Below are positions 12,726-58,417 of a stretch of 64,000 bases of DNA, in pieces. Below the pieces are notes generated by a model. The model had not been told where the DNA came from and did not search any database. It saw nothing but the letters and a program-made list of their open reading frames with translations. Source of the DNA: Ptychodera flava (Eukaryota); the NCBI RefSeq assembly GCF_041260155.1, contig NC_091947.1:31834780-31898779 (forward strand). The letters are read 5' to 3'. Each line of letters opens with the position of its first letter. The stretch's first letter is position 1. Made by a program: the position numbers and the translations under genes.

Positions 12726-12763
12726 GTCAACATGGGGTCGCAGCCATGTTGCCTCAAAACTTA

Positions 12764-12947: not shown

Positions 12948-13037
<90 letters not shown>

Positions 13038-23500: not shown

Positions 23501-25869
23501 GGACATGACCAGGAATAACACGAATACTAAAACCAAACAATGAACAGTTCTCCTTTGTTCTTATACAGCTGTATGTCTACGTCTAACATCCATGTCACTA
23601 GGGACTTTTGTGAGGCTGTTTTATGAAATTTAAAGGTGTGGTTGCATTAAAATGCTCTCCCTTTAAAATGGTGTGTGTAGGATTTTATTTGTGTGGATCA
23701 TAAAGGCTTACAAATTTACGTGAGACTGTGAGAAAACTTTTCATTACGCCTACACAGGTATGATACCGTGCCTGAACTGCAAGTCACTTTATTTTGGGAG
23801 CCATTCACACTGGAAGCCGTCAAATTATCAGCTTCAAGCGTATACATTGGTGTGCTTGGCTTCCAGCTTTGACTCAAGAACGCTGGCACTCTTAACGCAG
23901 AACGGCGCGGTATGTTGTTAGATCGGAGTATCCGGGATAATACCCCTTTTACCTTACTTCACGATTTCGCTCATCCTTTACACGCTATACACACATTGTC
24001 GTGTCAGTAAGAGCAATAAACCTTCAATATGTATTGCTTGACGACGTGTTTATCGAGACCTTTATGAATTTCAATTCTGTTTTCTCAGTATACATTGGAG
24101 TATATAATGATTTACAGACCCTGCGAGATGTATATTCCGTTGGCACATCCCTGTTTCCTTACCACGACTAGGGCTACTAAAACACAATCTAAACACTTGA
24201 CATTTCATTAACATTCACATGTATGAAAGGTCAATTTTACAATTTATACGGCGTTTCTACACGGCTTAAAGAGACATCGATCACATTTCATATAAGTTGG
24301 TCGCCATAAACACATTCTTATCAATCGTGAAACAAAAATGACAAAAACTACAGCATAATTTATAGCCGGCCACTTCATCCCCTCAAGTATTTCGTGTGAC
24401 TGATATGACATCAATATCGTTGAAGCACAACGCTATACTTTTGATTACCCCTTTCAAGCATACCGATGGAATGGTACCTAAGTCAACCAATACCTCACCA
24501 CTGAACTGAATTGCCATGTAAAGTACTAGTACTTGTTGCCGTCATCCTATTCTATCTAAATCTCGTGTACTAAATTCTTCCACACAGAATTGGTCTTTGG
24601 GAAAACGCTTCGTTGTCATTGCCGTGGAAATATACATGGGGTTTGCGTAGCCAGCTAATTCTTAACCATCAATCTGCACTGTGTTTTATCAAGATTTTAC
24701 AAAACTTACCAACATCATTTGCCATGTTTCAGGTAACATATAAAATAACGATTTAAAAGCAAGCGAAAAGTCCAATCTTGCCCAATTTAATATATGAGGA
24801 AAGATGCAAGCAGTGTTTTCCGTCTTTTTGTGTTACAATAGTGAGACTTACAACTAAAAGAAATATCCCAGTTGTATCGACACAAGTTCAAGCAGCGCCC
24901 TCAGACACAATCCCCCCACCGATCGCCCTTTCAGCAACCCTTAAACTTTGACTGTCCATATCAAATGAGGTCGATGTAATTTGGCATATCAGGAAGGTCA
25001 GATAGATACACAGAAGGTTTTGCGTTCGGTGACTTCTCTCGGTTGTGTCTGACAAAGGAAGCCCATGCAGAATTCTTTCCAGAAATGAATATGGCCGCAC
25101 CTGGAAAATATAAACGATTTAAATCGCACTGAACTTCAAATATGATACAAAATAAGACAAAAAGGATATTTCACACATGGTAAAATACTAAGCAGAACCA
25201 TGACAAGCAGACAAAGAACCATCCTGACGGGTATTTGGCAAATTCGTTCAATAGACTTTGGTGTAACAATGCAAGAAAGTGAAAATATCTTGAGACTTTT
25301 AAGAGAGAGTTGGTATACAAGACAAATTGTATTGATAAATGGATTCTTACATGTTGTCATCATGCTCAATGTCATGATAAGCTGAACAAAATAATTCTTT
25401 CGTTAAAAGCCGCTGCTAAAAATGCTGATTTAGCAGTGTCTTGGTAATTTGAACAGCTAATGACTGGTGTCTTTTGAAAGATCTTAAGACACTGTTGGAG
25501 GAACATTTAAGAATATGATATGAAGAAATGGTAAGAATTCAATCTAATTAAACTCCCGCTGCCTCTTTGAAAGATGTACTATTTCATAAAGTGCTCAGCG
25601 TGCTGGGTAAAATTGTTCAGATATATATTCATACTATGTTTCCCAGGATGTCAGGAATTCCGTCATCGACCTACATTAGTTTACAAACGAAAGTTATAAT
25701 CAACTATGTCTTCAACACGATATGGCATAAATAGACATTGATGACACCGTATATCGTACTGCATCACTGAACAGTCAAGAAACGTAAGATAGACCCCCAC
25801 CTTTGGGCTTATATCAGGATTACAAAATCCCTTAGAGATATTCCCTTCTTTTACACTGGAGCCCACTAA

Positions 25870-26163: not shown

Positions 26164-26222
<59 letters not shown>

Positions 26223-26340
26223 GGTGGTGGTGATGATGATGATGATGATGATAATGATGTTCATCATCATGAACATCATCATCATCATCATCATCATGAA
26301 CATCATCATCATCATCATCATCATTAGTATCGACCAATCA
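26150..26340. repeat. (CAT/ATG)n microsatellite with a (GTG)n segment, intronic
   Basis: It is a long imperfect trinucleotide array. It produces the spurious poly-His, poly-Asp and poly-Met ORFs in the track. The paralog at 62095-62160 is much shorter. Confidence 0.95.
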
Positions 26341-32619: not shown

Positions 32620-35600
32620 GGGACTGGACGTAAATTAGCAGGGGGGGCCGGGGGGATTTCGCAAGAGAGTGGAGAAAACAATCATGACCCTCCCCCAAAA
32701 TTTAGTCCAAAAATTTATGACCCTCCCCAAAGCAAGGCTGAAAAATCTGTGACCCTCCCCCACTTTCAAAAAAAAGAATATTACAAATTGATCGAATCTT
32801 CGACGTTTAGAAAGTGAGGTGGATATTTACAACACAGGGCAATATGGATGGACACCAGCAAAGGATGCCTGCAAATTTTTTACTTGCTTCTGCTTGTGAC
32901 AAGAACAAGTTTAGATTTGGGTGTCAGCCTTAACCCAAGAATACTTTCTATGACTCGGTGTCAGTCACATTTGATCAGCATGGGTAAAACTAATCTTGTA
33001 GACAAAAATCTGGATAATTCTATGCTACAGATTTTCCAGTACTTTTAATAAAAGGGAAACCCCTGATTTCTCTGCCTACACAATATGCATTCCAGTTGTT
33101 ATGATAATGGTTTAATATACTGTTTAACTCTTACACTGTTTAAACTTAGTAAACCAATCACCAGATAAATGAGTACTGGTATTCTTGTTTCCAGTGTGGT
33201 ATGGGTGGGTTGTTCTGGGAACACCATAGGACAAACTATATGATTAAATTAATTCATTGTTTGATTTTTTGCACAAGTTTGATGAAATGCTCGATTTTCC
33301 ATTTTGTCAGCACACTTGTAAATGTGATACAAGCCACAAAAAAACCAGTTTTAAGACTTCACTGGACACAAAATATGACACCACTGCTCAAGTGTCATCA
33401 GGCTAGGCTGACAAACTGAATCGATAACATATCATGCTAAAATACAGCAGCTAATACTGAAAAATTCTGAAAATAATATTCAGTTCTGTCCTCTTTTACT
33501 GCATATAATTTGTTTAAAATTCCTCGACAGGTCTTTTGCAGTCCCTTTAACAAACTTGTGGTACAGCGCACGTTTGTTTCAGCAAACTCAGACAATTGCC
33601 AGGTCAGAGTTGTGACAGCAAGTCTGAACACACATTTAGAGTACTGTAAAGTGTTGGGTCTGATATCCTTGTTCAATCATACATCTAAATTAATTTTACC
33701 ATTTATAAATTTTCTATAGTAAAAATGAAACCATTTTTCCTGGTAAAATTCTGAAATCTTATGAATTTATATAACTCTGACCTGCAAAGTAAACAACAAC
33801 AAAACCAACAACACCTTGTCCATACACCATTGTTTCAAATTACAGTGACTGACAGGCAAAAATAACAAAACAGCAAACATGGAATTTAGCCATTTTCATT
33901 GGCCATTAAAGGGACAAAGCCACTCATTTTTGACAAAAGTTTGGTCATTTTAATTTCTGTTGAATACATATGCTTTTCTGCTGCTCACTGAAATGGTTCA
34001 ATCGGAATCTCTGGTTGTCACAGCTCAACTCATGTGCATGCATATATATAACATGTGATCACTTAATGATTTATGTACCAAAAATTGTAACATTGTAAAT
34101 TTCACATGTTAATATGTCTTATAAAAAGGTGACAATTGAATTGCAATTGCAATAACCAGAGAGTGAGCATATTTCAGTGAGAATGATCTGTCAAAAGAAA
34201 TTTAAATGGCAAAATAATGTCAAAAATGAGCAACTTTGTCCCTTTAACTTGGATATCTAGTACAGATTCTTTTAATTCAAGTGTCAAGCTAGCAGCATGA
34301 CCATTGCACTGTTGAAGTATTAAAATGCTTGCAATGAATATTTTTATAATTGGTGCATTGACAAGATAGTACTGTAAAATGTTGACAAAAATAGCTTTGT
34401 CCAAAGTATCATAATATTAGCCATTCCTGAACAGGATATAAGATTAAATCACCATGTGAACTCACAAATATTTCAAATAGGAAAGTGCAGTCTTCTGCTG
34501 AGTCCTGAATCATGTACCGGTATGTTGTACACCATGGACGTAGACACTAAGCATAGCATAATGTGAAAAAACTTAAAGTCTTGGTACTAGATGACTGCTA
34601 AACAAGATCGGTAGTCTGCTTGTTTCAAAGCTATTTAAAAACTTTCTTCTGGACCTATTTCACATCATACTCGACCCCCTGGACTTGACCTGCAAACTTG
34701 GTTCGTAAATTGTATTCAGCTGGAAAATGACAATAATCAGAGATTCGTCATATTTGTCAAATTTCACTCATGACAATTATTTCTGTCCGTTTTTCCTGAC
34801 TGTCAAAATTGATTGAGGTCTTAGTATTGCAAGTACTTAATTTAATGATGATTTTCATAAATATGTTTCACTTACAACTGGACTGAATTGTCACTACTTC
34901 CAAGTGTGACTGTGAACATCATTCTAAAAATATTCAAAAAACTTCCACACAGTCAACTTTCTACAAGTCTGTTCACGAGTGTCGTGCTGTACCATCAAGT
35001 TCTCAGGACGCACACTATACATTTATAAAGGTCTGTATGTTTAAATGATTGGTTTATGAAAAATATATTAAGGATCAGAAGGATGTTGATATTACAATTT
35101 ACAAGTCTCGGTGTTGTTTTCCCAAGCAGGAGCGTATCAGTATCACCATGGAGCTACCACACTCTTTTGGTAGTTACATGGTATCACTCCTTGGTTTATG
35201 TAGCTGCAGTTGCAAAGCTGAAGGTTTTGCCTTTTTCAAGTTTTATAGCTTTTAGTTTTTAGTTTTAGTGTTAAGGTTTGATCAAGTTTACGTCCTACCT
35301 AAACACCAGTCCAAAAATTTAGGTACAACGGCAATATTGCCCTACGCTAGGAGGATATGTGTACCACTGTCGAAACGCGAAGGCTACTGAACCGGAAGAG
35401 CTCTCTCTACTGAGTACATAAGCCTTCGCGTAGCGACCTGGTTGCACCTGTGTGTGACGAGTATGCCGTTGTTGGAGGCAATCAAAGCAGCCAATAGCTG
35501 AAAACTCTTACTATTCTCGTAGGGCTTAGACTGCTACACCAAGTCAATGGCATATATCATGTAAAGTAGGCAGTAAATATGGGCCCTTTCACATTGGTTT

Positions 35601-37670
35601 TGAACTGCACATGTGGAATTTTATGATTCAACAGACTGTCCAATAATTCCAATAATGAATGCCAAAATTGGCTCATAATGGACTAGAGCACACTTACACT
35701 CCATTAAGAGTGATTGTAATAAATAATGTTCTTCACATGTTTTCTTTTATATTGATGCACATGTGCCTGCCATTTTTTTTTAGTAATTATAATTTAACAT
35801 TTATAAAAATATCAGTGAAATTCATAATTTTGGAATGAATCACATTGACAATTGAGGGAATATTGGAAACACAATGTGACACTGATCTCCACAACAATGT
35901 TATATGGTCATGTACAATGTATTGAGCAGTTCAATCTCTACATGGGGAGGAAATATGGGAAAGTATGTTTAAAATGTGTTCCTGGTACAGATATAGAACT
36001 ACATGTGTGTTTGCATGACCCCATTATTCACAGATTTTTTATGTAATCCAGATAGACCTGTGTAGTCAGAGAACTGGAAAATAACTGTACATGTGCTCAT
36101 TGCACTCATAGCAAATCCAGTTTTACAAAATGTACTATGTCTTCCAGTAGACAATGAGATGTTTTGGTCATGTTGCCCTGTTTTGGGGGAGAGGTTGCTT
36201 GTTCAAGCAATAATTTAAACGAATAATTCAAAGTACGGTCATAGATTGAATGCTATAGTATGAAATTATGGTGTTTTAACATTGACAATCTTTGCAAATT
36301 TGCAGAGCGCAAAGTTTTGGTGCCTTGTTTCTTTGCATTTTAAACATATCACAGAAAACAGCCTAGATAATAGGGGATAGACTGATCCAGATTTGACACA
36401 GAAGAGGCCAACACTATTTCAATCAAGTCTTCATATTCTGAAATGACATTAGGTAGGGTATATTGCTTTTTAGTACATGTTGCATCAAGATTCTCAGAAA
36501 AGGGATTTAACCATATGTAATCAAGATCAATCTTGGTTTTTCAGAGTAGATATTATCTTTTGAATGGATGTAGCATATTTTTTTAAGTTTGTGTTGTGAA
36601 ATTATGATATAAGATACTTGTATAGACCTAAAGATTTTATTTGTCTAATTTATGCACAGATTACACCAAAAAAGACAATAATTTGTAAGACTTTAAATTT
36701 TTTTCAATACTTTTGTTTATTCACTGTATATATTACCCACATTAAATTTCAACAGATGTCATATATCCTGCCATCACAACACAAATGAACACACTCCATT
36801 CCAAAGATAGTACCCGTGTGGTAAAGCCACAAGTAGCCATACCAATCAGATGACTTTAAGTATACTAAAATCACTTTTCTGGAATCAAAATTATTAATTA
36901 TTACACCAAAGCTTGCGCTTAATTTCAAACAATAGTACATGTATCTCTAAAAACTAAAAATTCATGTACCTAAAAAGTGACTGATGCAGGGAAGTGGCTT
37001 ATGCAAGAGAGGTAACTTTTGTTGATCAACAAAAAGTGGAATGAGAAATAATATTGTCAAATAGTTAGGTTCAAGATTGACTACATCAGTAGAACAATGT
37101 AAGATATTGTGGTAATATCCTGCAGTGTTTTTGTTAAGTATGGTACCTAGGTAAATGTTACTGGGTTCTCCAGTCATTTTACCAGGGTTACCCTTGGTAT
37201 ATCAGTGCAGTCATATTAGCGGACAACATAAATTTTACCAGGGTTCCCAATGTTCCCCAACCTTAGCAAAAACACTGTCCAGTGTTTATTAACAAAACAC
37301 ACTACATGTACACTGTGCAGCCAGAATACCACGACTCATTCCCTTTTATTGTGGGTTAGCTGAGGAACAAAAGATTGGATTTGCTATAAGCTTAATGGCG
37401 ATAAGAATAGCAACAAGAGAGACAATCCGGTTAAATAATGGTGGGGAAGAGATTCACAGAGTGTTGTGAATGAGCATTTAATAGAAAGTAAGAGGCAGAG
37501 TGCGAGTGATGTCATGTGAGCATATTGTCTTTACAAACAATTTGTTTTCTACTTTAGTGCACCGAAAACATGCCAAAAAAATTGTGACCCTCCCCCAAAC
37601 AGAGGTTCAAAAATTTGTGACCCTCCCTCTAATCCCCCGGCCCTCCCCCCGCTAATTTACGTCCCGTACC
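32620..37670. mobile_element. 5.05-kb PIF/Harbinger-like element with no ORF, G-run TIRs and a TAA target-site duplication, lying immediately 5' of the thioredoxin exon block
   Basis: The left end is GGGACTGGACGTAAATTAGCAGGGGGGGCCGGGGGGATT. The right end reverse-complemented is GGTACGGGACGTAAATTAGCGGGGGGAGGGCCGGGGGATT. TAA lies at 32617-32619 and 37671-37673. Subterminal repeats of the form GTGACCCTCCCCC occur at both ends. The interior is AT-rich with no ORF above about 80 aa. Confidence 0.7.
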
Positions 37671-40600
37671 TAAGATCTTCAGCATAGTCAGTGAAGTGGA
37701 ACTTGAGACTCTCTTCACTGGCTGTATGTCTGCAGTACCTGTCTCGTTTCAATTTATTCTGCTATAAAAGGAGTAGAGAACAGCCTGTCCTTTCAAGAAT
37801 GATTGCAAGATGGACATTTGCCGACCACTCTTCGCGTTTTCAACTAAATAAAAACACAGCTACGGACCTGACGAATACTTTTCCACGGTATATTTTTCAT
37901 AATTTAATCGTCATATTAGTGTTGGCCTCAAAAGTCCCGGAGTCATTGCGCTAAAAATAAACGACTGTCACACACTGGTATCATACATATGCGAAATGAC
38001 AATAAGGCCAAAAATAGGATTGTTTCTGGTCATCGAGCGCGTCATTTCAAAACCTGCGCCTTATGTCTTTCTTTGGTTACATACTCATCAGTACAGCTAT
38101 CCTTGATATCCCCGCTGCACATCAAAAATGCTAAAAAGAAAACGGAAGTATTATGCAGCCAGTGATAAAAGACAATAAATGTTGCATCAACTGGCATTGC
38201 TAGGTAAAAAAAAAAGAAAAAAAAAAAAAAACCGTTTTGCTGAATGTCAAGGACCAGAACCAATTTATTTTTGCCTAATATTGAGTACAATAATATTCGA
38301 TAATATATGGATATCATTTACTGCCACGTCCTTCGGGCGATTTGTGCGGTCATAATGCCATAAATCGACGCCATCTTCACACGTTTGCCGAGACGATCAC
38401 GCCCAGGCAGAGTGCGCTACGTGCTAAACGGCTCGCCGACCGGACAGGACCGGACGCGTGGCAGATTATGCCATCGTGTGTACTCGATGATAACATTAAT
38501 TATATCATTGAAAAGTGATATTATACGAAATTTTATAGATGTATCGTCCTGTCTGACAGTCATTATAAAGCTAAAAAGCAATCTGCAAGTGTGTTGACCA
38601 AAGCAACTGATGTAAAACAAAAGAATGTTTTTTATGTTGTTGTTTTTTTTTTATCCCATGGAAACCGTATTCCGATGTTGAATATGGATAAGGTAGTCAA
38701 ACATTTACCGCCGCGCGTTCGTTTGCAATTTCGCAACAATGAATGGCGTTGTGCACAAATTGTGCATAAACTGCGATTTTACATTTGTGATGCTCTGCAG
38801 GGTTGCCGTCGCGTTCAATGGCTCTAGCTCTAGATGAACGTCAAGCGTTTTAACGTAGGAATATCAGCTGCTCCAAGGACATGTAGTCATTGTTGAGAAG
38901 TCTTTTCGCCACGAATATATTATAATGGCTAGGATTTAGTTTCACTTTCAAACGCTATATTAGAAATTTTTCACCGAAGTGGCAATTTGACTGATTGCGA
39001 AATCTGTACCTGTGGAGCTCATAAACCCCATTAAGGCTAACAGCAATTACGGTTACAGGAAAATACGAGAGCGTTGAATAAAGCCACCTGCATGACCTGG
39101 CTTGGATCATAGACAGTGAAGCGCATCTACCGTCTATGCTTCGATTAGTTGTGAGGTATATCTGTAAATTTAGAACGATGACAACGAAATTCAACCATTA
39201 TCTCATTTCTGCCGCCAATGCTATGACCTACCTACCACCGAAGATAAATTCAGTCACAGTCTATAACAGTCGCTTATGGTTCCCATACACGGGGAAGGCC
39301 GCCTTTCAGCGGCCTTTGAAGCCCTGCTTAAGATCTTGTGTTCACGGCGATGTACGGACTGTGGTGGGAGGCCGTACAACAACCGGAACATACAGCATCG
39401 CACTAAGGGCTAGGGCCCACAAGCGACATTGAGTTTAGTTACATCACAGCTGGCCTGACGGACCACAGGTATGGAAACGTGCTGCATGCAAAACATCTGT
39501 AACAAATGCGGCCCCTCTGAAGTTGGAGGCTGGCAACCCAAGAAATGTAGAAAACCAACATATTACGATATGTATGATACATTACCTTGGTTTTAACAAC
39601 GATAACCGGCATGATTGACAAGATTGAATAGCACTCCTTGTCTTTAAGAATAGTTTCTGATAACAACTATGGGTTAACAAGACTTATATAGTCTGACAAA
39701 ACGAAAGAGGTAGGCTGCTGACGCCGCTAATTGGATGACAGAGGAAAACCCTAGTCATGCCATGGTACTACCTAGGCACATGGAAAATATTTGCAAAGTT
39801 ACCAACCGGTATCCCAGGGCGGCGGCCTTAAGGGCGAACCTTTCAACTTATAGGGGAGGGCCCGTAGAATCTTGGAACAGAACATTACTTCTGCTATGAT
39901 AAAATTTGCTAGCTCTGTCTTCGGGTACAAATGTATTATTTCGAACCTTTTCCCCGATTTCCCCGCCATTTTACTAATTTAGTATATCATATCTTTCCAA
40001 GGCTGATCGAGGCCTTTCCGGGAACATTAAAAAATCTTAAATATTATAAGTTGTTTCTTATGGTAATTGACAAGCAGTTTATCTTTCTAAATTTTTCGAT
40101 CCTCTATTACAAATATTCACAACCTTATTTCCCTACGCCGTGAAATTATGTCGTCAGAAAAGGCAAAATACGATATTTGAACACCAACGCACTGATATGA
40201 AGTTTTTCTGGTATGTTCAATATCTGAAACTATTCGTCCCAGAGTCAAAGCAAATGTGCACATTTCGAGCGATATGGGGTGAACTATTTGATATATTTGG
40301 GGGTCTGGAAGATTGAATGGGAACTACTTTTCCTCCCTGCTTCACTTGGAACTTTTTTCAACTGTGCCAATTCCATTTCTTATCTGGCAACTTTACTTTT
40401 CGCCTTTTCTCCCAGAGGAATATTTTTTTCCGCGCGCATGCACGCACAAAATGCCAGAATAATTGTTCTTTTTGTTGGGATTTTTTTCTTTACAAAACTT
40501 TAAACTTTTATTGACAAGCTATGGTAAGCTTGACCTATAATTGTAACAACAATGGACAACTGATATTCAGTGCAGGCTATGTTGACAAGCTGAATTGAGT

Positions 40601-40885
40601 ATTCAAGCATGTTTTAGGGAGAATCTGAAGAAGAAGCAAATCAAATAAAGAATACTACTGAATGTGTCCAATTGAAAAAACTGTGTACATGAAAAACAAA
40701 AGGAAGAGTTTGAGTTCAAATATTAATCATAAGAGGGCCTTAAGATCTGATTAAAAAAGCATGAAGTCTGCTTAAAATGGGACGCCCGAACGGCGCTGAA
40801 AATGAAAAGTAATAACTGAAAGTAACTGCCAGTGCATAATTATGTTTTCATATCTATTTGCAATTTTTTTTAGTTAATTTTTATT

Positions 40886-42658
40886 TTACTGCCATCCTTG
40901 GCTGGATTTTGTTTTTGGAGGTAACCTCTAATTCTTGGAATCTCCCCAAAATCATCAAGACCCCCCACGGACATTAAATGGTCCCCCCTAAAGCAGATGA
41001 CAAAAATTTCATGACCCCCCCCCACACACACACACATTGCTTGTGTAAAGCTGCACACACAAAGACCTCGGGGCGGGGTATGGAGTGATAGAATCTAAAA
41101 AAAAAAGATCTTAGATTTTCTCAAATGACCTTCCTTACAAACTCACAAGGTGTTAATGCTCAGATTTCCCCTTCTAACTCGTTATAATTTTGAAATTACC
41201 CCTTACAGGGGTTGGACAGAAATTACAGGTGGATAGCAATATTTTTGCGCAAGCGTGTGTTTACAAAATTTTGATATTTGGATTTTTAATTGAAAATCAG
41301 CTGTTGATAATGTTGATTCACTATACATGGTAATGTATGAGAAAATTATGTAATACTTTTTCAATGCAAAACTATATCTAGGATGCATTTATAGATATTT
41401 GATAATTTACATAAATGTACTTAAATGAAATAGGGTTGTTACAACTGGCATGTGGACAAAATGTTTGACTTTAGAATTTCATCAAAAATGTTCATCCACT
41501 ATACATGGGAGTCAATGATAAAGTTGTGAATAATTTTTTTTCCAATGAAATACTTGGTATACTTTTGCATATACAGACGTTCAATGATTAACATAATTGT
41601 ACTTGATTAGAATATGATGGTTAAAGGTGCATATTATGTGTACAAGAAATCTGATTATGGAATTTCACTGAAAATGTTTATCCACTACACATGGGAGTCT
41701 GTGAGGATAGTATGAATATTTTTTTCCGATACAAAAATAGGTAAACCCGTGTATTTATGCACTGTCGATTATTGATATTAATGTACTTGATTAGATTAGA
41801 TTAGGGTGGTAACAAATGGATGTGTTTGTCAGAAATTGGATTTTGGAATTATACCAAAATGTAGATTCACTGTACATGGGAGTCTATGAGGAAACTATGA
41901 ATAATTTTTTTCCAATACAAAACTATCAAAATCTGTGTATTTATAGACATTTGATAATTCATTTTAAAGTACTTAGTTAGCCTAGGATGGTTAAAGGTTG
42001 ATATGTGTGCAAGAAATTAGATTTTGGAATTTCACCAAATTGTTGATTCGCTATACATTGGATTCAATAAGAAACTAAGACTAATTTTTTTACAATGCTA
42101 AACAAAATTAATTTGTGCTTTTATAGCTGTTTGATAATTGATACGAATGTACTTGATTCCAATAGGGTATTTGAAAGTTCAGATGTGGACAACAATTATG
42201 ATATTGGAATTTCATCTAAAAGTATTATTTAACTTTTCATGGTAGTAGTTTCAGTACAGGTAACTGTTAAAGAACTTTACCTGACAAAACTTGCTATACC
42301 TCTAATATGTAAGTAATAGGAATTGTTCATTGCCCTCAGTGAGCTCGATTTACAATAAGACAAGCCTCAGAGTTGCCAAGTCAAGATGTTCATGTGACAG
42401 ATAATTATACTTTTGTTCAGATTTACAGTTGAATAACTTCAGAGAATGAAATCATGCAACGAATCATTTTTATCTCCCAGAATATTTCTGAACACTGAAA
42501 CTGCTTTTTGACGGGACGGATACTTATGAAAATTAAGTGACCCCCCCCTCTGAGCTGTTTGAAAAATACATGACCCCCCCCCTTTGCAGTTTTCAAATTT
42601 GAGGTGACCTCCCTGGATTTTGCCGGCCACCCCCGGCCATAATAACTGAACGCTCCCT
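40886..42658. mobile_element. MITE-like element carrying an internal satellite array
   Basis: The right TIR CGGCCACCCCCGGCCATAATAACTGAACGCTCCCT (42617-42658) matches the inverted sequence at 9435. Subterminal GACCCCCCC and TGACCCCCCCC motifs occur at both ends, and 40886-40920 pairs with 42590-42620 (GGAGGTAACCTC with GAGGTGACCTCC). Confidence 0.6.
41190..42240. repeat. ~181-bp tandem satellite, at least 5 units, inside the MITE
   Basis: The landmark C(A/G)CTATACATGG recurs at 41321, 41500, 41682, 41862 and 42047, spaced 179-185 bp. Units are about 75-85% identical. Confidence 0.8.
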
Positions 42659-42743
42659 AATTACATAATGTCTAATTTAAGGCAGGTGATAGAATCATGT
42701 CGTCAGTCATAAACTATTTGCCAACGTTGCAATATTGACCTGA

Positions 42744-43930
42744 TCGTTAAGTGGGTCAGGGCTATTTTTGAGTTGGTGACTTATCTGCGTTCTTGTTTTG
42801 TAATCTTATTGCTCATTGGTATTGTTTTTAGGCGAAAGTTGTGAAAGGAAAACAAACAAACAAACAAATAAACTAATAACGAAATTGCCGTATTTCTCTC
42901 GGAGTTGTACGCTAAACGCTGAGTGAAGGCCAACTCTAAGGTTTGCTTTATGTTTTGGAAGATGGCAACACTAACAATGACAATAACTTCATGTACACTA
43001 TTGTCGGTAGATGATCAGAATACAAGAGAAGTTGGCCAGTAACGAGCTCGGCCAGTGGGAGAACTCGGCCAGTAGGCGAACTCAGCCAGCAGGAGTATGC
43101 AACCACTTAGAACGTAAGATCCACATTGTACTTCCATTTTTAAGGTAGCTACATACCTTTCAGACACTTTCAGATTTTTATTTTTTCTCAATTGAACATG
43201 TCCCAAACCCCAATAAAGTATACATTTCCTGAAAGCCCTGATATAGAGCTATCCGACCAAGCACAGTACACGGTCATCATTTGCATAGGAGTCACGTGAC
43301 AAGCGTTTTTCTGAACCTTCCAAAAACCTGTTTTTCCCGCCTTATGCGAACACGCTGCAAGATTTCCGGGGAATTTCTTCATTGACAAGCCTTGACAATA
43401 TCCTTCAAAATCGTGTCTTGGATTTTCTTTGTATGCCTTTGTTTTTTTAATGCGCTCTTAAAGATGTTAGATAAGGTGCTTTTCAAGGAATTTTAATTAT
43501 CACGCCATATATTTGAATGGAGCCTCCGGGAAAAAATCGCAGACACGGTTTTGAAGGATATTGTCAAGGCTTGTCAATGAAGAAATTCTAACCGGAAACG
43601 GAAATCTTGCAACGTGTTTGCATAAGGCGGGAAAACCGGTTTTTGAAGCTTCAGCAAACGCTTGTCACGTGACTCTTATGCAAATAATGACCGTGTACTG
43701 TACTTGGTCGGATAGCTCTATATCAGGGCTTTCAGAAAATGTATACTTTATTGGGGTTTGGGACGTGTTCAATTGAGAAAAAAATAAAAATCTGAAAGTG
43801 TCTAAAAGGTACGTAGCTACCTTAAGTTCCGCTAAAGTTCTAATGCAAAAGCAATATCGATGTCATGCATGAGCGTAATGCTTGCTAACTTCCCAGTTCA
43901 CGCACATACGCGTGTCCCAACTACACATAA
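42744..43930. repeat. Repeat family B copy 2, interrupted by a foldback element
   Basis: It is collinear with 1830-2330 apart from the 678-bp insertion at 43144-43821. Confidence 0.65.
43144..43821. mobile_element. TTAA-flanked foldback element with ~270-bp inverted arms and a ~125-bp spacer
   Basis: The arms 43144-43410 and 43535-43821 are near-perfect reverse complements, with termini GGTAGCTACATACC...GGTACGTAGCTACC. TTAA lies at 43140-43143 and 43822-43825. The paralogous empty site at 2195-2205 reads TTTTAAGGTCCGC. Confidence 0.7.
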
Positions 43931-44414: not shown

Positions 44415-44510
44415 GTCTGTGTCAGCGCTGTCTTTTTGCATAACTATCTGTTCAACGTAAATACATTCCAGCATTGACCATCTTGTAGTCTTTGATCAGA
44501 TGCATGTAAA
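43921..44510. repeat. Repeat family C copy 2, with (CTGT)n at 44370-44415
   Basis: It is collinear with 4960-5690. Confidence 0.7.
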
Positions 44511-44579
44511 GTGGAGGTGCCCAACGTCCACTGTGAGGTCAGTTAACATATCTTTTCATGTTTGATGTTTGATGTTTAC

Positions 44580-47500
44580 ATCTATCAACTGCGCCTGCAT
44601 CACTTCATGACCATATATGGTGATGTTTATGGCTCGACTGATCACTGCCGACCTATAACATTCCCGTACGTGCAAATAAACCTAGCATGAGTCAGACACA
44701 CCTTTACAGGTGGATGGCATAGGGACCTTCAGGGAGCACACCATAAGATAATCTGGGGGTGGTCATTGTATAGATATGCGAATTTTGCGTTCAATGATTT
44801 GGGATATATTTTCAGAGCATGGATACCTTTTCCATTGGAAATCAAAATTATTTTACTTTGCAATCATATGAATTCTTCTTGAGTAAAAGCGACGAGGCTG
44901 AAAAATGATAATTCACATTTCCCCTCCTGATATGAAGTTGATGAAGTCTGCTAACATTTCCACATTTCGACTAACCGTCCAAAGGTGTTAGTATTTCAGT
45001 CGCAGCATTTCAATTAGCCTTCCTCATGTTTGATAACTTTAAGTCACCAAACTTTGTAAAACTCGTTCTCAGTTTCTTTGAGTTAAAACTGTACCTGCTG
45101 TATAGTCTGGGTCCTTAAAATGGCCTGATTAGGGACAAATGTTTTTGGAAGGTCCTCAAATTTTGCTTACAAATGATATTGCATTCGAGTTATGTTCAAA
45201 ATTATGAATAATTGATGACAATTTGTCAGGTCAGCTCCGTATATATTTATTCAGAATCAATGACCAAGGAGAGAAAAGAGTATTAAAAGAATATCGGCTT
45301 CAATAAAATGTGAAAAGTTCTAGAGTCATTTTCTAAGTACTTTGCCGATAAAATCTTCAAGAAACAGAAACAAATAATAAAACACTTATTTGTTACATTC
45401 AATACTTAATAAATTCAACAAACCTGGCCGTGTATTGCAATCCGAATCGAAAAATCAGCTGTGCGTAACGCAATATAGACTGAAAACACATGGAGGAAGG
45501 GCTTCTCATCTATGACTCCGCAGGTTTTGCTGTACAACTTAATGCTTGTCGAATGTCACATCCTTACCATGTGACATTCGACAAGCATCCACTGTGAACA
45601 GCTCCAAGCATAAATTAAAGATTCATTTTGTTTACCAAGGCATATAATGTACATTGAACACGATTGGAATTAATTTGGGAGAATAGGATACACGTGTAGT
45701 AGTAATGTTGGTTTAGTCAGCACATTCAAGCTCATCTACTTTTCTTTTTTTGCAACTTTCAGCTATAGGGCACCGAACACTTTTGATATAGAATTGAACA
45801 ATTGAAAGATCCTATTTTCCCAAATTAGTTCCAATCGTGTATTGACTCAACCTGACTCCTGAGACTAACATTGCCTATTTATTTTGTCGCTTTATAGATA
45901 TTTTTGATTGACTGTCAACAAATGTCAACGACATTGACGATACTTAAATCTTCCTCGAAGGAAGTTTTGTCTCCTTTATTATGATGTCCAAACAGTGGTT
46001 TTGAAGTGCCACATGGACTTCTCTACTATCATATGTTTCGCACAAATGTACAATGTCATACAATTTTATGCGGGCCGAGTTGTGTCTATTAATATATTTT
46101 AGGGATGTACATATCCGAAATGGATTTGACCTCAGTGTCCATGACCAGAATACAATGACATGATTATGAACAGAGAGAGAACGTATTTGATATTTGACCA
46201 ACTTCCATGTCCACTTCAAGCAACGCATTTCAAGAACTCCTTTAAGCATATTCATATTTGTCAAGACCATACCATGTCTCCTGAGTCATCACGGAGGCAT
46301 TGTGGAAACATGAAAAGAGCAATGAAGGTTAACAGTAGAAAACTAAGTCGTGCACCAGCGTCTCGAATAGACCCAACGTGAACACATTCCCTCGGTATCA
46401 GCGGGGGACACACTTCATGAAATCTGTGATATGCAGGTCGGTGTCTATGTATCTACAGTAGTAGAACAACACGTCAACGCAATGACACATTTAGACTTTT
46501 TATAGCCAATAAATCTTCCGACTTATTTTGTGAAGGTGTGTTCTTTCGTCGAATGACACGGGCAGCCGTACAAGCACGAGGTATATTGCGCCTCGAAGAC
46601 ATATTAGGACTCTCCAAATTTTACAATTCTGTTTTGGTCTACCACTTGTCGGGGCTCATTTTGAAGCCCATACAGTCGGTAAAATTTTTACCTGCTTAGT
46701 TTTGTGAAAATTAGGGATGGAGTGGAATGTATTGCCGCCTAGCGCTGGTTTGAAGAATGACATTTCAACAGTTACAAGTAGGACAGTGCCTCCGTGGCCA
46801 TCACATAAAGAAGAACCCACGCCCGCGCGATATAACCTTTTGTGACAGTATAGGTCATAACTCATGGCAACCATTGTGAAGTAATTACAAGTTTCGTTAC
46901 AGACTCGCATGGGAAAGAGCATATCTTCACGACCATATAGAGTAACTTAGCTTTCATCATCTAAACGACGAGGTATGACCTTTGTATGACGTGACTGACT
47001 TCAGTAAATTACTTGAAGGTGGTGAGAGGAAAAGCGTAAATGAGTGTCAGTCTTTCAATCCATGCCATTTTAGAATGAGGATTGATAATGCAAATAAAAA
47101 TAGCCGTTTTTCCTTACATATACTCTTCTTTCTAGTGAGATATTACATTTCAGAAAATAGCGTCAAGTATTTTACTAAAATTAATTTTTATCATTAATAC
47201 CAAACTTAAGGTTTTTTACCCCAAATATACACCCACTTCATCCTTCAAGTAAACTACTGCTATCATACTAAACTTCAAAGTCTCTGCTTTTGAAAATATA
47301 TGGTATGAGGGGGTTTCCTTATCATCTTTGATGAGAAATATTGCTTTGAAAAAAAACTGTTGGCAACATGCAGCTTCACCTTAACATGAGGCTCTGCTCT
47401 TGTCAAGATCATATGTATGACGATGGCAACAATTTTGCCACTGTTCAGCATGCTATACGCAACTGGTATAGCAAGTTACTTCATGAATTTGCCTAACATT

Positions 47501-49880
47501 GTTATTAAAACGTATTTTGGAGTTAAGTACATTCAGCATTAAAAAGTATGTCATCATGTAAAGTATGGTATAGTATTACACAAGATGGAAGTTTCGTATT
47601 ATTTATTTCTTAATACACATCACTCAGGTAGTTCTGCGCATTTTAGAAGTCACAGACTTAAACTCGTTTAGTTGAAAACAAGAATTCCAATTCCGAAAAT
47701 AGTTTAAAGGTGTTTACTATTTTGATGAAATAATGAAGGGGCAAATGTCTACTTTGATATTGGAGCATTTAACCATTCTAATGAAAGCTTGATGTACAAG
47801 TCAGTCTCATTAAAATCTGAACCAAGATCACCGACCACAATATGTCTTAATCAGTGCCACCGTATTCACCATCAATCGCTCCACTGCTTGTATCGCCCTT
47901 CAGTGAACCATCTGAATAGGAAAGACAACGTGTTCGGCATGTTCGCCTGGCCCAAGCCCGGCATCCGCATAGCCACTCGGTTATGCTTGCCGACATGTAC
48001 AATAAGATCATGTACCGCGATTCTTTATTGAATAGACAAGTCGTATAGTGGTATATGCCGAGCGCCTGTGCTCTCTCTAGTGAACCATCTAATTAGCAAA
48101 GACATCCATTGGTTTCAATTTCGTCACCTTTTGGCATTTCAGATACAAGCAGTATGTAAAATTGTTGTGGAATTTTTCTATTTCTCGGAATTTCAACCCA
48201 GTGAAGGTATATTAATACGGCATCAAATCAATTCCAGCAATCGTTATCATTCAAGGCAAGTAAATCACCAGGTCCAAGAAACAATACAAAATAAACACTG
48301 ACAAAGTCAATAGTGCAATCTCGAACCACTAGTTGTGGTACCAGGTGTCCAAAATGGGTAAGCAAGATTGAACTAAAGTGGTAATTCAGCTAGCTGCCAA
48401 ATTATTGCTGTGAGTTAAGCCAGGATTATTGTCTCTTATCATCTGAGTAACAGATGTGACATATTTGGATTTAAGATCTCCATATCTACCACGGAAGTTC
48501 TTATAAATGAGCTACCCAACCCACTCTGTTAAAATCTCCGTCTCATTATCTTCAATACTTAAAAGTTGTGTCTGACTTGAAAGTCTTCATATGATCACAA
48601 GCTCTACAGTATCTCAGGAGTTGTAAAATGTATACACCATAAGCTAGACCATACGACCGACTAAATATTACTGATTAAGTAAGGAAAGTTATTGCTTTCA
48701 AAATTAAAATCGTCCTGTTTGTCATACAGCTCAGCGTGCGACTTAGGCCTATTTTGTCGAATTAAAAAAACAGATCAAGATATGACGCTGAGCCCACACT
48801 TTCTGTTGTTTCTTTTATTTCTAATTCATCTTGATAGATGTGATGGAGGTAGTTATGATCATTCTCGTTGCTCAGAAAGCAAGTTCCTTCATCACTCCAT
48901 AGCATTAGAGGGTAAAAGTTCGAGTTTCGTTACGAAAACGAAAGGTTACGAGATTAAAGGTCATGCACAATGGACAAAGAGTCGAAAATGCAGTCAGACC
49001 ATATATGGCATAGACATACACCTCAATCGTCGGAGGGGACACATACCAACAGCAATGTATGCGTGAATGAGTACAGGGGACATGACCAGCAATAACACGA
49101 ATACCGAAACCAAATATTGAACAGTTGTCCTTTGTTCTTATACAGCTGTACGTCTACGTCTAACATCCATGTCGCTAGGGACTTTTGTGAGGCTGTTTTA
49201 TAAACATTTAAAGGTGTGGTTGCATTAAAATGCTTTCCCTTTAAAATGGTGTGTGTAGGATTTTATTTGTGTGGATCATAAAGTCTTACAAATTTACGTG
49301 AAACTGTGAGAAAACTCTTCATTACACCTACACAGGTATGATACCGTAACTGAACTGCAAGTCATCTTCATTTGGGAGCCATTCACACTGAAAGCCGTCA
49401 AATTAACTGTCCCGTATACATTGGTCTGCTTGGCTTCCAGCTTTGACTCAAGAACGCTGACACACTTAACGCAGAACGGCGCGGTATGTTGTTAGGTCGG
49501 AGTATCCATGTGACACTCGACAAGCATCCACTGTGAACAGCTCCAAGCATAAATTAAAGATTCAGTTTGTTTACCAAGGCATACAATGTACATTGAACAC
49601 GATTGGAATAGATTTGGGAGAATAGGATACACATGTAGTAGTGGTGCTGGTTTAATCAGCAAATTCAAGCTCATCTACTGTTCTTTTTTTGCAACTTTCA
49701 GCTATAGGGCACCGAACACTTTTGATATTGAAATTTAACAATTGAAAGATCCTATTTTCCCAAATTAGTTCCAATCGTGTATTGACTCAACCTGACCCCT
49801 GAGACTAACATTGCGTATTGGTTTTGTCGCTTTATAAATATTTTTGATTGACTGTCAACAAATATCAACGACATTAGTGA
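44580..49880. repeat. Mosaic of repeat families D (44580-45960), E (45950-46560 and 48700-49500), F-related segments (46700-48300) and a D tail (49500-49880)
   Basis: Blocks are collinear with 17440-22740. ORFs in these blocks are not conserved between copies. Confidence 0.6.
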
Positions 49881-49886
49881 TACTTA

Positions 49887-52200
49887 CAGACGTCGTGACT
49901 GCGCCCCGGACAGCCAATTTGCAATATACCCAGCGATATCATGTGCCACACACACAATTAGCTCATTAATTAGCGAAACATTTGGTCAGATGTGAAGTGT
50001 GTCTCTCTTGCTGTTATCAGCGCGACCATTTCCTGTGTCAAAAGTTGTGAAATGTAAACACATCTCCTGGTACAAATCATTTCTTTCAGGGGGTGGCTGC
50101 TCACGGTAATAACTTCGAAGTGGTAAGAATAACACAAAATTTTACATAAAATACAACACTGCTAATAAAGTATTTCTTTTCTACAAATACCGTTTCTTTT
50201 TCATTTTTTATAAGACCAAAGTATTGTAAGATTGAAATGCTATACGCGTTTCGTTAGCTCCCCAAACCTCCTGCATTATGGTTTCTTCCAAACGAGAAAT
50301 CCACTAAGCGGTCGTCAGAATTCGTGGCGGTAAAAGTTGAGTTGAAAACTTTCGCCTTTCTGTTCGGCATCATCCGATAGCCTTCGCGCACTTTATAGAT
50401 TATTAGAAATCACTAGTTGCAGTAGTTGGAAGCCCGCAAGTCAAGGGCAAATAAAGGAGAACGTTTTCTAACTTACACGCTATCTAAATGTAAATCGAAC
50501 TAAATTTTATCGAAGTAATCAACAAAACCAATGTTACTTCACATATCGACTACTCAGAACGAAAACTAATCGATCAATTTCTTATTTAGGCATTCCCGTC
50601 TACACGAGTACACGCGACAACAATGACCACATGAACTTCAACTTGTAAATCAATGAAACGGCCCGGAATCCACACAGCCTAAAAAAAATGCGTGACATCA
50701 GCGGGTTATGTCGGAAACGGCTTCAATTATAGCAGTTTCAGTAAACTGACGAACTGCAAAGACATCATGTTTACGGAGATACCCTTTGACAAATCGAAAG
50801 CACATTTCACAAGTGTTAAACTCGGGGCTGTACGGAGGCTGAAACACTAAAGTAACTTCACGCTCGCCCAACAGTTCCCGTAGGTATGGCTCTGCGATCC
50901 GACCATGGTGGAATCCGCAATTATCCATGACAACTGTGTCGCCCGGAGATAAAATCTGATCATCTTGTTCGTCAACGACTTCCAGCGCCTCCTCAAAAAA
51001 GTAGATCATTTCAAGGCCGTTCGAAGGGCCATCGAGAATATTAAAGTAATCGACGCCCCGTGCACAATGAAGGAGGTGTAGCGTGTAGTTCACGTCCGAC
51101 GTGTATCGCTGGACTTCAAATGCGGGTTGACCTCTCAGACTGTGTCCATACTGTCTGTTGCCCGATGTCTTTTTGACGCCCGCTTCATCAAAAAAATGCA
51201 CACTGAGGGGATCAAGTTGAGAAATGTCATCGATGTACTGCATTATTTTTCTGATGTTCTTTCAGTCAACTGTTCAGCCGGAACACTCTGTATTTTCTTG
51301 TAGGAATAATTTAAATCTCTGCCGAGGATGTCGTAAATCGTCCTGTGTGCAGGGAGGTTTTCTTCTGTGCAGACATTTTGATTGAGCAGTTCAGATCGAA
51401 TTTCGGAAACAGTCATTGAAGGCTTACCGAATTTCAAATATTCCACGAAATTCACGACTTCGGGTACGCACTTTGATCGTAGGGCTCCGCGATTCTTCGA
51501 AGGATGAACGAATCCAGTCTTAAGAAAGTGAGTTACTATGTCATGCACGGTTGTCTTCGGCATACATAGTTGATGCGCGATCTCTCGAACACTTGTCCCT
51601 TTGCACTCGTGTTTGATCGACAAGTCAATGATCTTCGACCGTTTGTCGATGTCGGTTATTTTTTGACATATTTGAAAGTTCCTGGCAATGAGAGACGACC
51701 GACCGGTGAAAGTTTTGACTGCACTGAACTTGGCGATGTCTGTGTAAGCGGTAATTTTACGTCACGACTGTGTTTACGTTTAACCGGAAAGGGCACTCAC
51801 AATTTCAATTTCGGGGTCTCACTGAGCAGAAACTTAGAAAATGGTGTAATTAATCACTCACTCTAGGCAACGACAATAAACGAAAATGATAACTTTCTTT
51901 TTAAAATATCACAGTGTCCCATACAACTTTACCGATACAAGACGTCAAAATATGGGATCAAATGTAACAGGTTTGATGACCATATTCTGGACCGCACCTG
52001 TACAGGAAATGGTTTGATCCAGACACGTTTATTTATAGTCTGGATTCATGGGGCGCTTAGTGCGTCGGCAACGTAAACTCATGCCTGCAATCAAAGGCCT
52101 ACAGCTACCGTTTAAAACGCTGAGCGATATCACTGTGTGGCCATCAACATTGCTGGGTATATTGCAAATTGGCTGTCCGGGGGCGCAGTCACGGACTCTG
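49887..52200 (-). mobile_element. Tc1-family (DD34E) transposon, complete copy 2 of 2314 bp, with TIRs of at least 50 bp and a TA target-site duplication
   Basis: The left terminus is CAGACGTCGTGACTGCGCCCCGGACAGCCAATTTGCAATATACCCAGC. The right terminus reverse-complemented is CAGAGTCCGTGACTGCGCCCCCGGACAGCCAATTTGCAATATACCCAGC. TA lies at 49885-49886 and 52201-52202. The intact empty site GATACTTAAATCTTCC is visible at 18869-18884 and 45939-45954. Confidence 0.9.
50698..51623 (-). pseudogene. Tc1-like transposase, about 310 aa, with a single 1-bp deletion near 51243
   Basis: The track ORFs 51243-51623 (HTH region ...TSVREIAHQLCMPKTTVHDIVTHFLKTGF...) and 50698-51243 (DDE region) are contiguous in copy 1. 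The motifs are FFDEAG, VVMDNCGFHH and PPYSPEFN. Confidence 0.85.
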
Positions 52201-53636
52201 TAAATCTTTCTAGAAGGAGGTTTTGTCTCCTTTATTATCAATGATGTCCAAACAGTGGTTTTGAAGTGCTACATGGACTTCTCTACTATCATATCTAGTG
52301 TTTCGCACAAATGTACAATGTACATAAATTTTTTATGAGGGCCGAGTTGTGTCTATTAATAGTTTAGGGATGTACATATCCGAAGAGGATTTGACCTCAG
52401 TGCCCTTGATTAGAATACAATGACCTCAGTGCGCTTGAATAGAATACAATGACATGATTATGAATAGAGAGAACGTATTTGATATTTGACCAACTTCCGT
52501 GCCCATTTCAAGCAACACATTTCGAGAACTCCTTTAAGCATATTCAGGTCTTAAACTTGTCAAGACCATACCATGTCTCCTGACTCCTCTGGGAGGCATT
52601 ATGGGAAACATGAAAAGAGCAATGAAGGTTAACGGTAGAAAACAAAGTCGTGCACAAGCGTCCCGAACAGACCCAACGTGAACACATTCCCTCGTCATGA
52701 GTGGGGGACACACTTCATGAAATCTATGATATGCAGGTCGGTCTCTCCGTATACAGTAGTAGAACAACACGCCAACGCCATGACACATTTAGACTTCTTA
52801 TTGCAAATAAATCTACTTCCTTATTTTGTGAAGGTGTGTTTTTTCGTCGAATGACACGGCAGCCGTACAAGAAGTCATTTTTGTCATACAGCTCAGTGTA
52901 CGACTTAGGCCTATTTAGTCGAATTAAAAAAATAGATCAAGATATGACGCTTAGCCCACACTTTCTGTTGTTTCTTTTATTTCTAATTCATCTGGATAGA
53001 TTTGATGGAGGTAGTTATGATCATTCTCTTTGCTCGTAAAGTAAGTTCCTTCACCACTCTACAGCATTAGAGGGTAAAAGTTCGAGTTTCGTCACAAAAA
53101 CGAAATGGTACGGGATTAAAGGTCATGCACAATGGACAAAGAGTCGAAAATGCAGTCAGACCATATATAGCATAGACATACTAGTACACCTCAACCGTCG
53201 GAGGGGACACATACCGACAGCAATGTATGCGTGAATGAGTAGAGGGGACCAGCAATAACACGAATACACTTGTCCTTTGTTCTTTTACAGCTGTGCGTCT
53301 ATGTCTAACAACCATGTCGCTAGGGGTTTTTGGTGAGACTGTTTTAAGAAATTTAAAGGTGCGGAAGCATTAAAATGCTTTCCCTTTAAAAGAGTCTGCG
53401 TAGGATGTGATTTGTGTGGACCATAAAGTCTTACAAATTTATGTGAAACTGTGAGAAAACTCTTCATTACGCCTACACAGGTATGATACGGTAACTGAAC
53501 TGCAAGTCATCTTCATTTGGGAGCCATTCACACTGAAAGCCGTCAAACTAACTCCCCGTATACATTGGTCTGCTTGTTTCAGCTTTGACTCAAGAACGCT
53601 GACACACTTAACGCAGAACGGTGCGGTATGTTGTTA

Positions 53637-55015
53637 GGGTGGACCATTTGATATCCTGGGGGGGGGGGGCTTGGAAGATTGGTGGAGAGCCATTATTTTT
53701 TTCCCACGTGCTTCACCATGAATTATTTTTTTTCTACAGGGCATATGCTGGCAACTTTTTTTTCACTTTCCTTCTTCGAGATATATTTTTTTTTTACCAA
53801 ATTTCGGTGCAATGTTTGTTTGCTTGGTTTTTCACGCCCAGTAACAAGATGCTGTTCTATCGCGCACAGACTATATTCAAGAAACTAAATGAAGATATGT
53901 AAATACATGTACATTTTTGATTCACTTCACAAAAACATATTTGTAAAATCATGTACATTTACGGCATTTACTTGTCAGTGTTGTCCTTACATTGAAAGTA
54001 GCCGGGTAATTTAAGAAAGTAGACGGGTGGACTGCGAGGGAGCGAAGCGACCGAGCGGCGAGTGAGCGTAGCGAACGAGGGGGGGGGGTAGAGCGCGAGA
54101 GGGGGTGTCTCCCCTCTCGCAAGGCGAAAAATGAAATTTTGGAGTGGAAATGGTGTTCTCTGGTGGCATCTGAGGTGACATTTAGCTGAGACTGAAACAG
54201 TACTTTTGTTGTGTGTCTTAGACGTGGCTCACATACAACAAAACAAATAAACATGATTTTGTTTTGTTTGTATTATTTATGACACACTTATGGTTTAATT
54301 GCAGTGAAGATGTAACATTTAATCTTAAATCACCCGCTGTCTGTTCATTTCATTGCCCATTTCCCATTCTTCATTACTACATAGTAGTTTCCCAAAACCA
54401 TCAAACTCATTCGCTTTTGTTAAGAAAAACATTGGTAAGATAATTCACTATAACTGTGTTCGCATTTACGAATAAAACATGCGTATATAGAAAACTCATA
54501 ACAATGAAAAAATGTGTAGAGAGTCGATCCAATGCGTAATAATATTACGCATTGGATTGAGTCTCTACGCATTTTTTCATTGTTATGAGTTTTCTATACG
54601 CAAACGATAATAGTAAAATGTTTGCAGGCTGTCTCTCTTCTTGTGGTATTTTGACAAAATCCATACATTCAGATTTACACATTTCTGGAAAACACTGGTG
54701 AGCAATTTCAATTTCAGCATACTTCCTCTAATCAGAAGGTCATGTATACTGTACAATTGTTCATATTCAGTTATTGTTCCTCAAGCTTGAAATGGTTTAT
54801 GCTTTATAAAACTCCAGAGCTACTGCTTGATTTTTTTATTGATGCTGCAGTGTGCATCGAACAATTGCCAAGATTTTTTTCCGAGTCGCAATGGTCCATA
54901 ATTGTTTTTCCATCAGCCACTTAAAGCCAGATTTTTTTTTTCAAGCAACTCCACCTGTCATCTTTTTTTTTCCCCAAATCTTCCAAGCCCCCCCAGGATA
55001 TCAAATGGTCCACCC
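53637..55015. mobile_element. PIF/Harbinger-like MITE of 1379 bp with 41-bp G-run TIRs and a TTA target-site duplication; present only in copy II
   Basis: The 5' end is GGGTGGACCATTTGATATCCTGGGGGGGGGGGCTTGGAAGATT and the 3' end AATCTTCCAAGCCCCCCCAGGATATCAAATGGTCCACCC. TTA lies at 53634-53636 and 55016-55018. The empty paralogous site at 20628-20640 reads GTTGTTAGGTCGG. Internally it has poly-T tracts, a GC-rich segment at 54000-54130 and a ~140-bp palindrome centred near 54545. Confidence 0.85.

Positions 55016-58341: not shown

Positions 58342-58417
<76 letters not shown>

Follow-up and report, generated by a model that had tools for sequence, protein, structure and literature searches.

In the genome of the acorn worm Ptychodera flava (assembly GCF_041260155.1), a short array of tandem repeats is located next to the terminus of a putative DNA transposon. 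Both lie within a stretch of 64,000 nucleotides (contig NC_091947.1, positions 31,834,780 to 31,898,779 of the forward strand), which is called the window here and to which all positions refer; its GC content is 38%, and it contains few long open reading frames (ORFs). In a preliminary description, made from the nucleotide sequence, the array was regarded as a satellite embedded in an element with terminal inverted repeats (TIRs) at 40886-42658. The analyses reported here indicate that the array adjoins, and most probably lies inside, a non-autonomous TIR transposon, designated family A, but that it is not bracketed by TIRs, since the 3' terminus alone is present.

Extent and divergence of the tandem array

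Comparison of the region 40701-42900 with itself by blastn yielded an alignment of 740 bp with 70.7% identity at an offset of about 180 bp (E 1e-89), and further alignments within the array were obtained at offsets of two, three, and four units. A repeat search detected in-register repeat families of four to five copies with a spacing of 178-186 bp, the period of the head-to-tail array. When the units were cut at a conserved box, AATGTTGATTCACTATACATGG, and aligned with MAFFT, five complete units could be defined, starting at 41309, 41487, 41673, 41858, and 42039. They are preceded by a partial unit from about 41240 and followed by about 25 bp of a further one, which reaches 42246. In total, the array covers 1007 bp or about 5.5 units, with a consensus of 182 bp and 26% GC. 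The presence of at least five head-to-tail units of about 181 bp, as initially described, is thus borne out by three approaches. The limits given for the array, 41190-42240, have to be corrected at the left side, where the start had been placed about 50 bp too early.

The units are quite diverse. Their pairwise identities range from 63 to 77%, and the mean Kimura two-parameter (K2P) distance is 0.38. Owing to this excessive divergence, Tandem Repeats Finder (TRF) did not report the array at default or at lowered thresholds. Within the window, no second monomer was detected, even at a word size of 7 and E values up to 10. A satellite should consist of long arrays of homogenised monomers; the window contains 5.5 units and no further monomer, and the 182-bp units show no sign of having been homogenised, recently amplified, or linked to a satellite. 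The proposal that the mobile progenitor of a satellite had been found is therefore without support, considering a divergence of about 30% between the units, the missing 5' TIR, and the lack of another monomer in 64 kb. By analogy with family B (see below), this divergence probably predates or accompanies the history of family A and does not reflect a recent local expansion.

Termini of the putative array-bearing element

To the right, the sequence following the array ends in a TIR. By blastn, 42624-42658 is the reverse complement of 9444-9478 at 33 of 35 positions. A search with a 27-mer, allowing up to three mismatches, detected just these two sites in the window and none in shuffled controls. 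Applying the degenerate pattern GGGANNGNTCAGTTNNTNNGGCC, six termini were found in the window: 9445 on the plus strand, 42657 on the minus strand, and both ends of both copies of a sister family, B. Downstream of the terminus at 9445, C-run motifs are present on the plus strand (GTGAACCCCC and GATAACCCCC at 9511-9520 and 9547-9556, respectively). Since 5' ends of family B are organised in this way, 9445 represents a 5'-type end and 42657 a 3'-type end, which is also the reason why the similarity between the two sites stops after 35 bp. The 9445 site is best interpreted as the 5' end of another A copy, of which about 150 bp are left next to a fragment of a long interspersed nuclear element (LINE). 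The LINE begins at about 9600-9630 and its tail is near 10990; the region 10990-12760 was searched for the remainder of the A copy, and nothing A-like was found there. In these respects the first description was accurate: the 3' terminus is the inverse of a sequence near 9435-9470, and this distant terminus is isolated and abuts a LINE fragment.

The situation is different on the left side. Two segments correspond colinearly to the ends of another family, C: 40875-40989 to its 3' terminal 118 bp (54899-55016, E 8e-9) and 40277-40429 to its 5' 156 bp (53637-53792, E 8e-9). Local alignment scores of these ends with C were 43 and 50, compared to shuffle maxima of 25 and 28. They delimit a separate miniature inverted-repeat transposable element (MITE), C', which is an older and shorter relative of the family C reference copy. 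Since 40875-40988 is the 3' end of C', the supposed left terminus belongs to a neighbouring element, and the C-runs at 40960-40988 are the G-run of a C-type TIR on the opposite strand. An inverted repeat between 40875-41060 and 42500-42660 was not detected in the repeat search; the best local match between left and right side, GGAGGTAACCTCTAATT versus GGAGGTCACCTCAAATT, had a score of 24 with a shuffle maximum of 25. Bracketing of the array by inverted termini could consequently not be confirmed. The same applies to the proposed inversion of the C-run motifs, which are direct repeats. All 12 RTGACCCCCC sites in the window, including those at 41011, 42537, and 42570, are located on the plus strand, with 0.07 expected by chance, and within the 64 kb they are confined to A and B elements.

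The body of A starts directly after the TAA trailing the 3' end of C'. Its left part contains the subterminal C-run motif ATGACCCCCCCCC at 41011-41023, followed by a (CA)n microsatellite at 41023-41036. The sequence CAAAAATTTCATGACCCCC (41000-41019) resembles 9537-9556 of the 5' fragment, with 9 of 500 shuffles reaching the score. TIR searches failed to reveal an A-type 5' TIR near the array or upstream of C', and the first 160 bp of the 9445 copy have no counterpart at 40100-40277, upstream of C', where 388 of 500 shuffles scored as high. At the right side, colinearity with family B is seen, in that 42529-42660 corresponds to its 3' end at 59448-59581 with 64% identity (E 2e-6). From 40992 onward, the order of modules is a C-run unit, the microsatellite, unique sequence, the tandem repeats, unique sequence, three C-run units of about 33 bp, and the TIR, an order mirroring B. 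Because plus-strand C-runs specific to A and B flank the array at both sides (41011; 42537 and 42570) as they do in B, the array is probably internal to A. The segment 40992-42657 would then represent an A-family element minus its terminal 50-90 bp or so, with a good chance that the array was part of it. Having lost the 5' TIR, this copy can no longer move.

Coding capacity is absent from the A region, as its longest open frame comprises 77 codons and is found in the G/C-run region. A protein search with the 73-aa translation across the 3' terminus gave no homologue, and scans of the A region aimed at an origin from a short interspersed nuclear element (SINE) or an RNA gene revealed no Rfam or tRNA match. 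While a 3' TIR alone is seen at the array locus, the family as such has inverted termini, those at 9445 and 42657. Flanking trinucleotides are available from one side per copy, TAA at 42658-42660 and TGA at 9442-9444.

Table 1. Positions of family A sequences, neighbouring elements, and related families in the window
Feature	Position	Strand	Characteristics
Left part of A body, without 5' TIR	40992-41239	+	One C-run motif, (CA)n microsatellite, unique sequence
Tandem array, about 5.5 units of 182-bp consensus	41240-42246	+	Repeat search, blastn, MAFFT; 28% GC
Unique internal sequence between array and 3' subterminal repeats	42247-42528	+	No match elsewhere in the window
3' subterminal region, three units of about 33 bp	42529-42622	+	Starts GTGACCCCCC (42537), ATGACCCCCC (42570), GTGACCTCCC (42604)
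3' TIR, family A	42623-42657	-	Reads GGGAGCGTTCAGTTATTATGGCCGGGGGTGGCCG inward; outward flank TAA, 42658-42660
C', separate C-family MITE, 713 bp	40276-40988	+	Both ends colinear with C; followed by TAA, 40989-40991
5' end fragment of second A copy	9445-9600	+	TIR 9445-9478; 33/35 TIR match; motif orientation
Degenerate, 5'-truncated LINE fragment adjoining A 5' fragment	9630-10990	+	ORF pieces with frame shifts; RVT_1 on 10267-10635 (E 6.4e-13)
Family B, copy 1 (sister of A)	12764-14197	+	Both TIRs; TTA on both sides; 3+3 subterminal C-run units on the same strand; (TA)n
Family B, copy 2	58166-59578	+	96.5% identical to copy 1; TAA on both sides; four empty paralogous sites
Family C, reference copy, 1.38 kb	53637-55015	+	TTA flanks; four empty paralogous sites (20627, 23910, 49484, 59787)
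Family D, 5-kb non-coding relative	32620-37670	+	TAA on both sides; both ends carry GTGACCCTCCCCC units, all on one strand

Related families and genomic surroundings

Comparison of 12 aligned termini revealed a common design consisting of TWA, GGG, about 20 nt, CC, a G-run, and GGATT. The TIRs of A and B agree at 16 of 23 positions, those of C and A are merely loosely similar. Next to the TIR, A, B, and D contain about three subterminal units of about 33 bp (RTGACCC[C/T]CCC...AAAAA), and the orientation of these units does not differ between the two ends. Insertion into a 3-bp target could be demonstrated for the second copy of B (TAA) and for C (TTA), each by comparison with four empty paralogous sites, and matching flanks are present at the first copy of B (TTA) and at D (TAA). 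The empty sites of the second B copy, GGATCATAAAGGCTTACAA, are located at 20078, 23695, 49273, and 53418, and the uninterrupted form reads GGATCA-TAA-AGGCTTACAA.

A family of piggyBac-type MITEs was considered as well. Such elements duplicate a TTAA target and have CCC...GGG termini. This assignment is excluded, as the empty sites read GTTAGG and ATAAAG without TTAA and the termini are of the type GGG...CCC. PIF/Harbinger elements produce a target site duplication (TSD) of 3 bp, usually TTA or TAA, and require a transposase and a Myb-like ORF1 protein for transposition (PMC2213677, PMC2836001). From the TAA and TTA duplications in B and C, the group of A, B, C, and D is read as PIF/Harbinger-type (Tourist-like), and family A itself is inferred to belong to this superfamily. 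ORFs for a DDE_Tnp_4 transposase and a Myb-like ORF1 protein, as encoded by an autonomous element of this type, are not present in the window. In a search with human HARBI1, the matches listed were all vertebrate orthologues. Exact and degenerate TIR scans of metagenome and viral contigs revealed nothing relevant; the sole match was a chance match within an ATP-synthase gene. A literature search yielded nothing specific on Harbinger elements or MITEs of hemichordates.

The interpretation of the array draws on family B. The internal tandem repeats, of about 120 bp and located at 13763-14001 in the first copy, are about 71% alike and are carried by both copies, which are 96.5% identical and reside at unrelated insertion sites. 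The repeats therefore predate the transpositions and travel as cargo. In this way, the general idea put forward earlier, that TIR elements carry tandem repeats to new sites, is shown directly by B. B resembles A in its related TIR, in the homologous 3' end of 130 bp, and in the order of its modules, among them internal tandem repeats. It differs from A in being complete, young, and demonstrably inserted, and the sequence of its repeats is unrelated to the 182-bp unit.

Additional observations were made on these families. B is a young and evidently recently mobile Harbinger-type element of about 1.43 kb, the copies differing by 3.5%; besides (TA)n, it contains GC-rich palindromic cores, GCGCCCGAAGGGGGCGC, in its internal repeats. 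A near-perfect palindrome of 113 bp is found inside C at 54486-54598. In D, the open segments of the six frames contain no Pfam domain and no ORF exceeds 87 aa. D represents either a non-autonomous element of large size or the decayed form of an autonomous one.

The surroundings of these elements include a large segmental duplication, 1807-28127 versus 42748-64000, with an offset of about 41 kb. A sub-repeat of about 3.6 kb, which supplies the empty sites of B and C, occurs at least five times within the duplication (e.g., 19542-20246, 23169-23867, 48712-49441, 52903-53637, and 57595-58168), and its ORFs have no Pfam match. One of the duplicates contains a block of 11.8 kb (5690-17524), for which about 80 bp are found in the other (44506-44586). 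This block holds the A 5' fragment, the LINE fragment, the first B copy, a 227-bp tandem repeat in 1.9 copies (14953-15388), and a small TIR element (16574-17164); it is either a nest of insertions or was deleted from the other duplicate. Missing from its paralogous site at 2203-2209 is a foldback-type element of 686 bp (43140-43825), which is its own reverse complement at about 84-96% identity and the arms of which begin with TTAAGGTAGCTAC. A microsatellite palindrome, (ATG)n directly followed by (TCA)n, was kept in both duplicates (26164-26324 and 62097-62157), and a perfect tandem duplication of 48 bp in two copies is located at 61380-61476 (TRF, 100% match).

Two copies of a Tc1/mariner transposon, 1-1811 and 49882-52203, are 98.5% identical and contain ORFs with DDE_3 and paired-box/helix-turn-helix (HTH) domains. 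One of these ORFs (50698-51243, minus strand) is 100% identical to a protein annotated at NCBI as 'uncharacterized protein [Ptychodera flava]', further P. flava paralogues match as well, and entries related to it bear the annotation 'paired box protein Pax-1-like'. Given this identity to annotated proteins, the respective uncharacterized and Pax-1-like gene models are probably transposase genes.

Origin and significance of the array copy

From these data, the segment 40992-42657 is regarded as an old, immobilised, 5'-truncated, non-autonomous cut-and-paste DNA transposon with passenger repeats, a reading to which a probability of roughly 0.7 is assigned. Several points weigh against it. The window contains no complete A copy, and the 5' boundary, the number of units, and the inclusion of the array depend on the analogy to B and on one short motif match. 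For A itself, neither a pair of TSDs nor an empty site is available, and the flank of the 9445 terminus is TGA, not TWA. An autonomous Harbinger element with matching TIRs was not found in the window, and the 5-kb relative D is devoid of Pfam domains. Furthermore, it has to be assumed that exactly the 5' terminal 50-90 bp or so were lost beside the TSD of another MITE, for which abortive excision or repair would be a mere conjecture.

The main competing explanation is that the array arose as an old, locus-specific tandem duplication in host DNA, which happens to lie beside a 3' fragment of A (about 42529-42657). Demonstrable homology to another element is indeed restricted to the last 130 bp or so of A, neither the monomer nor 41024-42528 has a second copy in the window, and a 5' TIR is lacking. 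Such an origin is nevertheless unlikely, because a C-run specific to A and B is situated in the correct orientation upstream of the array at 41011, for which the chance is about 1e-3 in this interval, and because the module order parallels that of B with its internal repeats. C' and A could also be parts of one composite element (40276-42657) with a C-type 5' TIR and an A-type 3' TIR that were mobilised together. The outer ends, which both start with GGG, come from related families and point towards each other, and nesting at the TSD of another element is plausible with TWA targeting. On the other hand, the outer flanks, TAT and TAA, do not match, C' has its own complete 3' TIR and TAA inside the supposed composite, and the TIRs of C and A are only loosely similar, rendering this arrangement highly improbable.

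Barely credible is the original view of one intact pearl-type MITE at 40886-42658 with inverted termini and inverted C-runs, which serves as a satellite seed. The array and the right terminus are real, and a weak 17-bp match with a palindromic core connects 40917-40933 with 42596-42612. However, the score of this match, 24, is within the shuffle range (maximum 25), the left end is part of a C-family element with its own 5' end at 40276 and TAA after its 3' end, the C-runs are on one strand, the type of TSD and the TIRs do not fit pearl (PMC3879986), and the units are about 30% diverged. Almost no weight can be given to the idea that 9445 (plus strand) and 42657 (minus strand) delimit one and the same element, either 33 kb in size or interrupted by insertions at a later time. 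As 5'-type and 3'-type ends of one family, they are oriented correctly with respect to each other, but their flanks differ (TGA versus TAA), the interval contains host-like units of the segmental duplication shared with 44.6-64 kb, and the 9445 end is part of the 11.8-kb block, the absence of which from the paralogous copy (44506-44586) is independent of the 42657 end.

If 40992-42657 is a truncated A element, its history may be envisaged as follows. A Harbinger transposase and a Myb-like DNA-binding partner, supplied in trans, would have recognised the TIRs and probably the repeated C-run units, which are plausible candidates for binding sites of the Myb-like ORF1 protein. The transposase would have cut out the A element and inserted it again at TWA sites. 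The array of 182-bp units would be passenger DNA; slippage or unequal exchange most likely produced it in an ancestral master copy, after which the units would have diverged without homogenisation. Finally, the 5' TIR would have been lost, possibly because the transposase cleaved this end and the break was then resected and repaired. Mobilisation in trans, the position of the array inside A, and the route of 5' end loss are all inferred parts of this scenario.

Comparisons with known systems fit this picture to a varying extent. With Tourist-like PIF/Harbinger elements such as mPing (PMC2836001, PMC2213677), the families described here share the 3-bp TAA or TTA duplications (B, C, and D; a TAA flank in A), TIRs starting with GGG, the absence of coding capacity, and dense interspersion. 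They differ in being larger (1.4-5 kb) than classic MITEs, in the C-run units of about 33 bp with the same orientation at both ends, and in the internal tandem repeats, and the array copy has no 5' TIR. Subterminal blocks in the same orientation and internal tandem repeats are unusual but not unprecedented.

The elements pearl, DTC84, and DINE-1 of bivalves and insects have AA as putative target, terminal or subterminal inverted repeats of 10-20 bp, and the modules L, core repeats (1-5), and R; a tetranucleotide microsatellite is located directly beside the core repeats, which are related to true satellites (PMC3879986). Pearl-type elements were later tied to Helentrons or Helitron-like elements (PMC7492417). 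A few core repeats of satellite length in a non-autonomous element and the presence of a microsatellite are common to these elements and A. In contrast, the A group has a 3-bp TWA duplication, as deduced from the empty sites of the sister families, and GGG-type TIRs of about 35-40 bp; the only microsatellite of A is (CA)n at a distance of about 200 bp from the array of 5.5 units, its host is a hemichordate, and no satellite counterpart is known. The likeness to bivalve pearl-type elements, suggested at first, thus does not hold, as neither the AA target nor the module layout is found. Tetris, a foldback transposon of Drosophila virilis, contains internal repeats that gave rise to a satellite (PMC4079207). 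It resembles A as a DNA transposon with internal tandem repeats and proposed satellite source. The repeats of Tetris are, however, part of long foldback arms and have demonstrably expanded into arrays elsewhere, whereas those of A are central and degenerate, and no arrays are known.

Taken alone, the array copy matters little, being a single decayed transposon in a part of an acorn worm chromosome that is densely populated by transposons and segmentally duplicated. It calls for some caution, since neighbouring MITEs with similar C/G-run ends can pass for a single TIR-bracketed element. A more far-reaching interpretation is that A, B, and D constitute an undescribed lineage of non-autonomous Harbinger-type elements in hemichordates, with subterminal C-run blocks in the same orientation at both ends and regular internal tandem repeats, of which the 182-bp unit, or relatives of it, has expanded into satellite arrays elsewhere in the P. 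flava genome. This appears improbable at present. If true, these elements would be a vehicle for satellite dispersal outside molluscs and insects, and long arrays of the 182-bp unit elsewhere would extend the concept of transposon-borne satellite seeds to the Ambulacraria. The descriptive value of the window lies in a PIF/Harbinger-like non-autonomous group in a hemichordate with clean pairs of insertions and empty sites, and two of these families apparently carry old internal tandem repeats as cargo.

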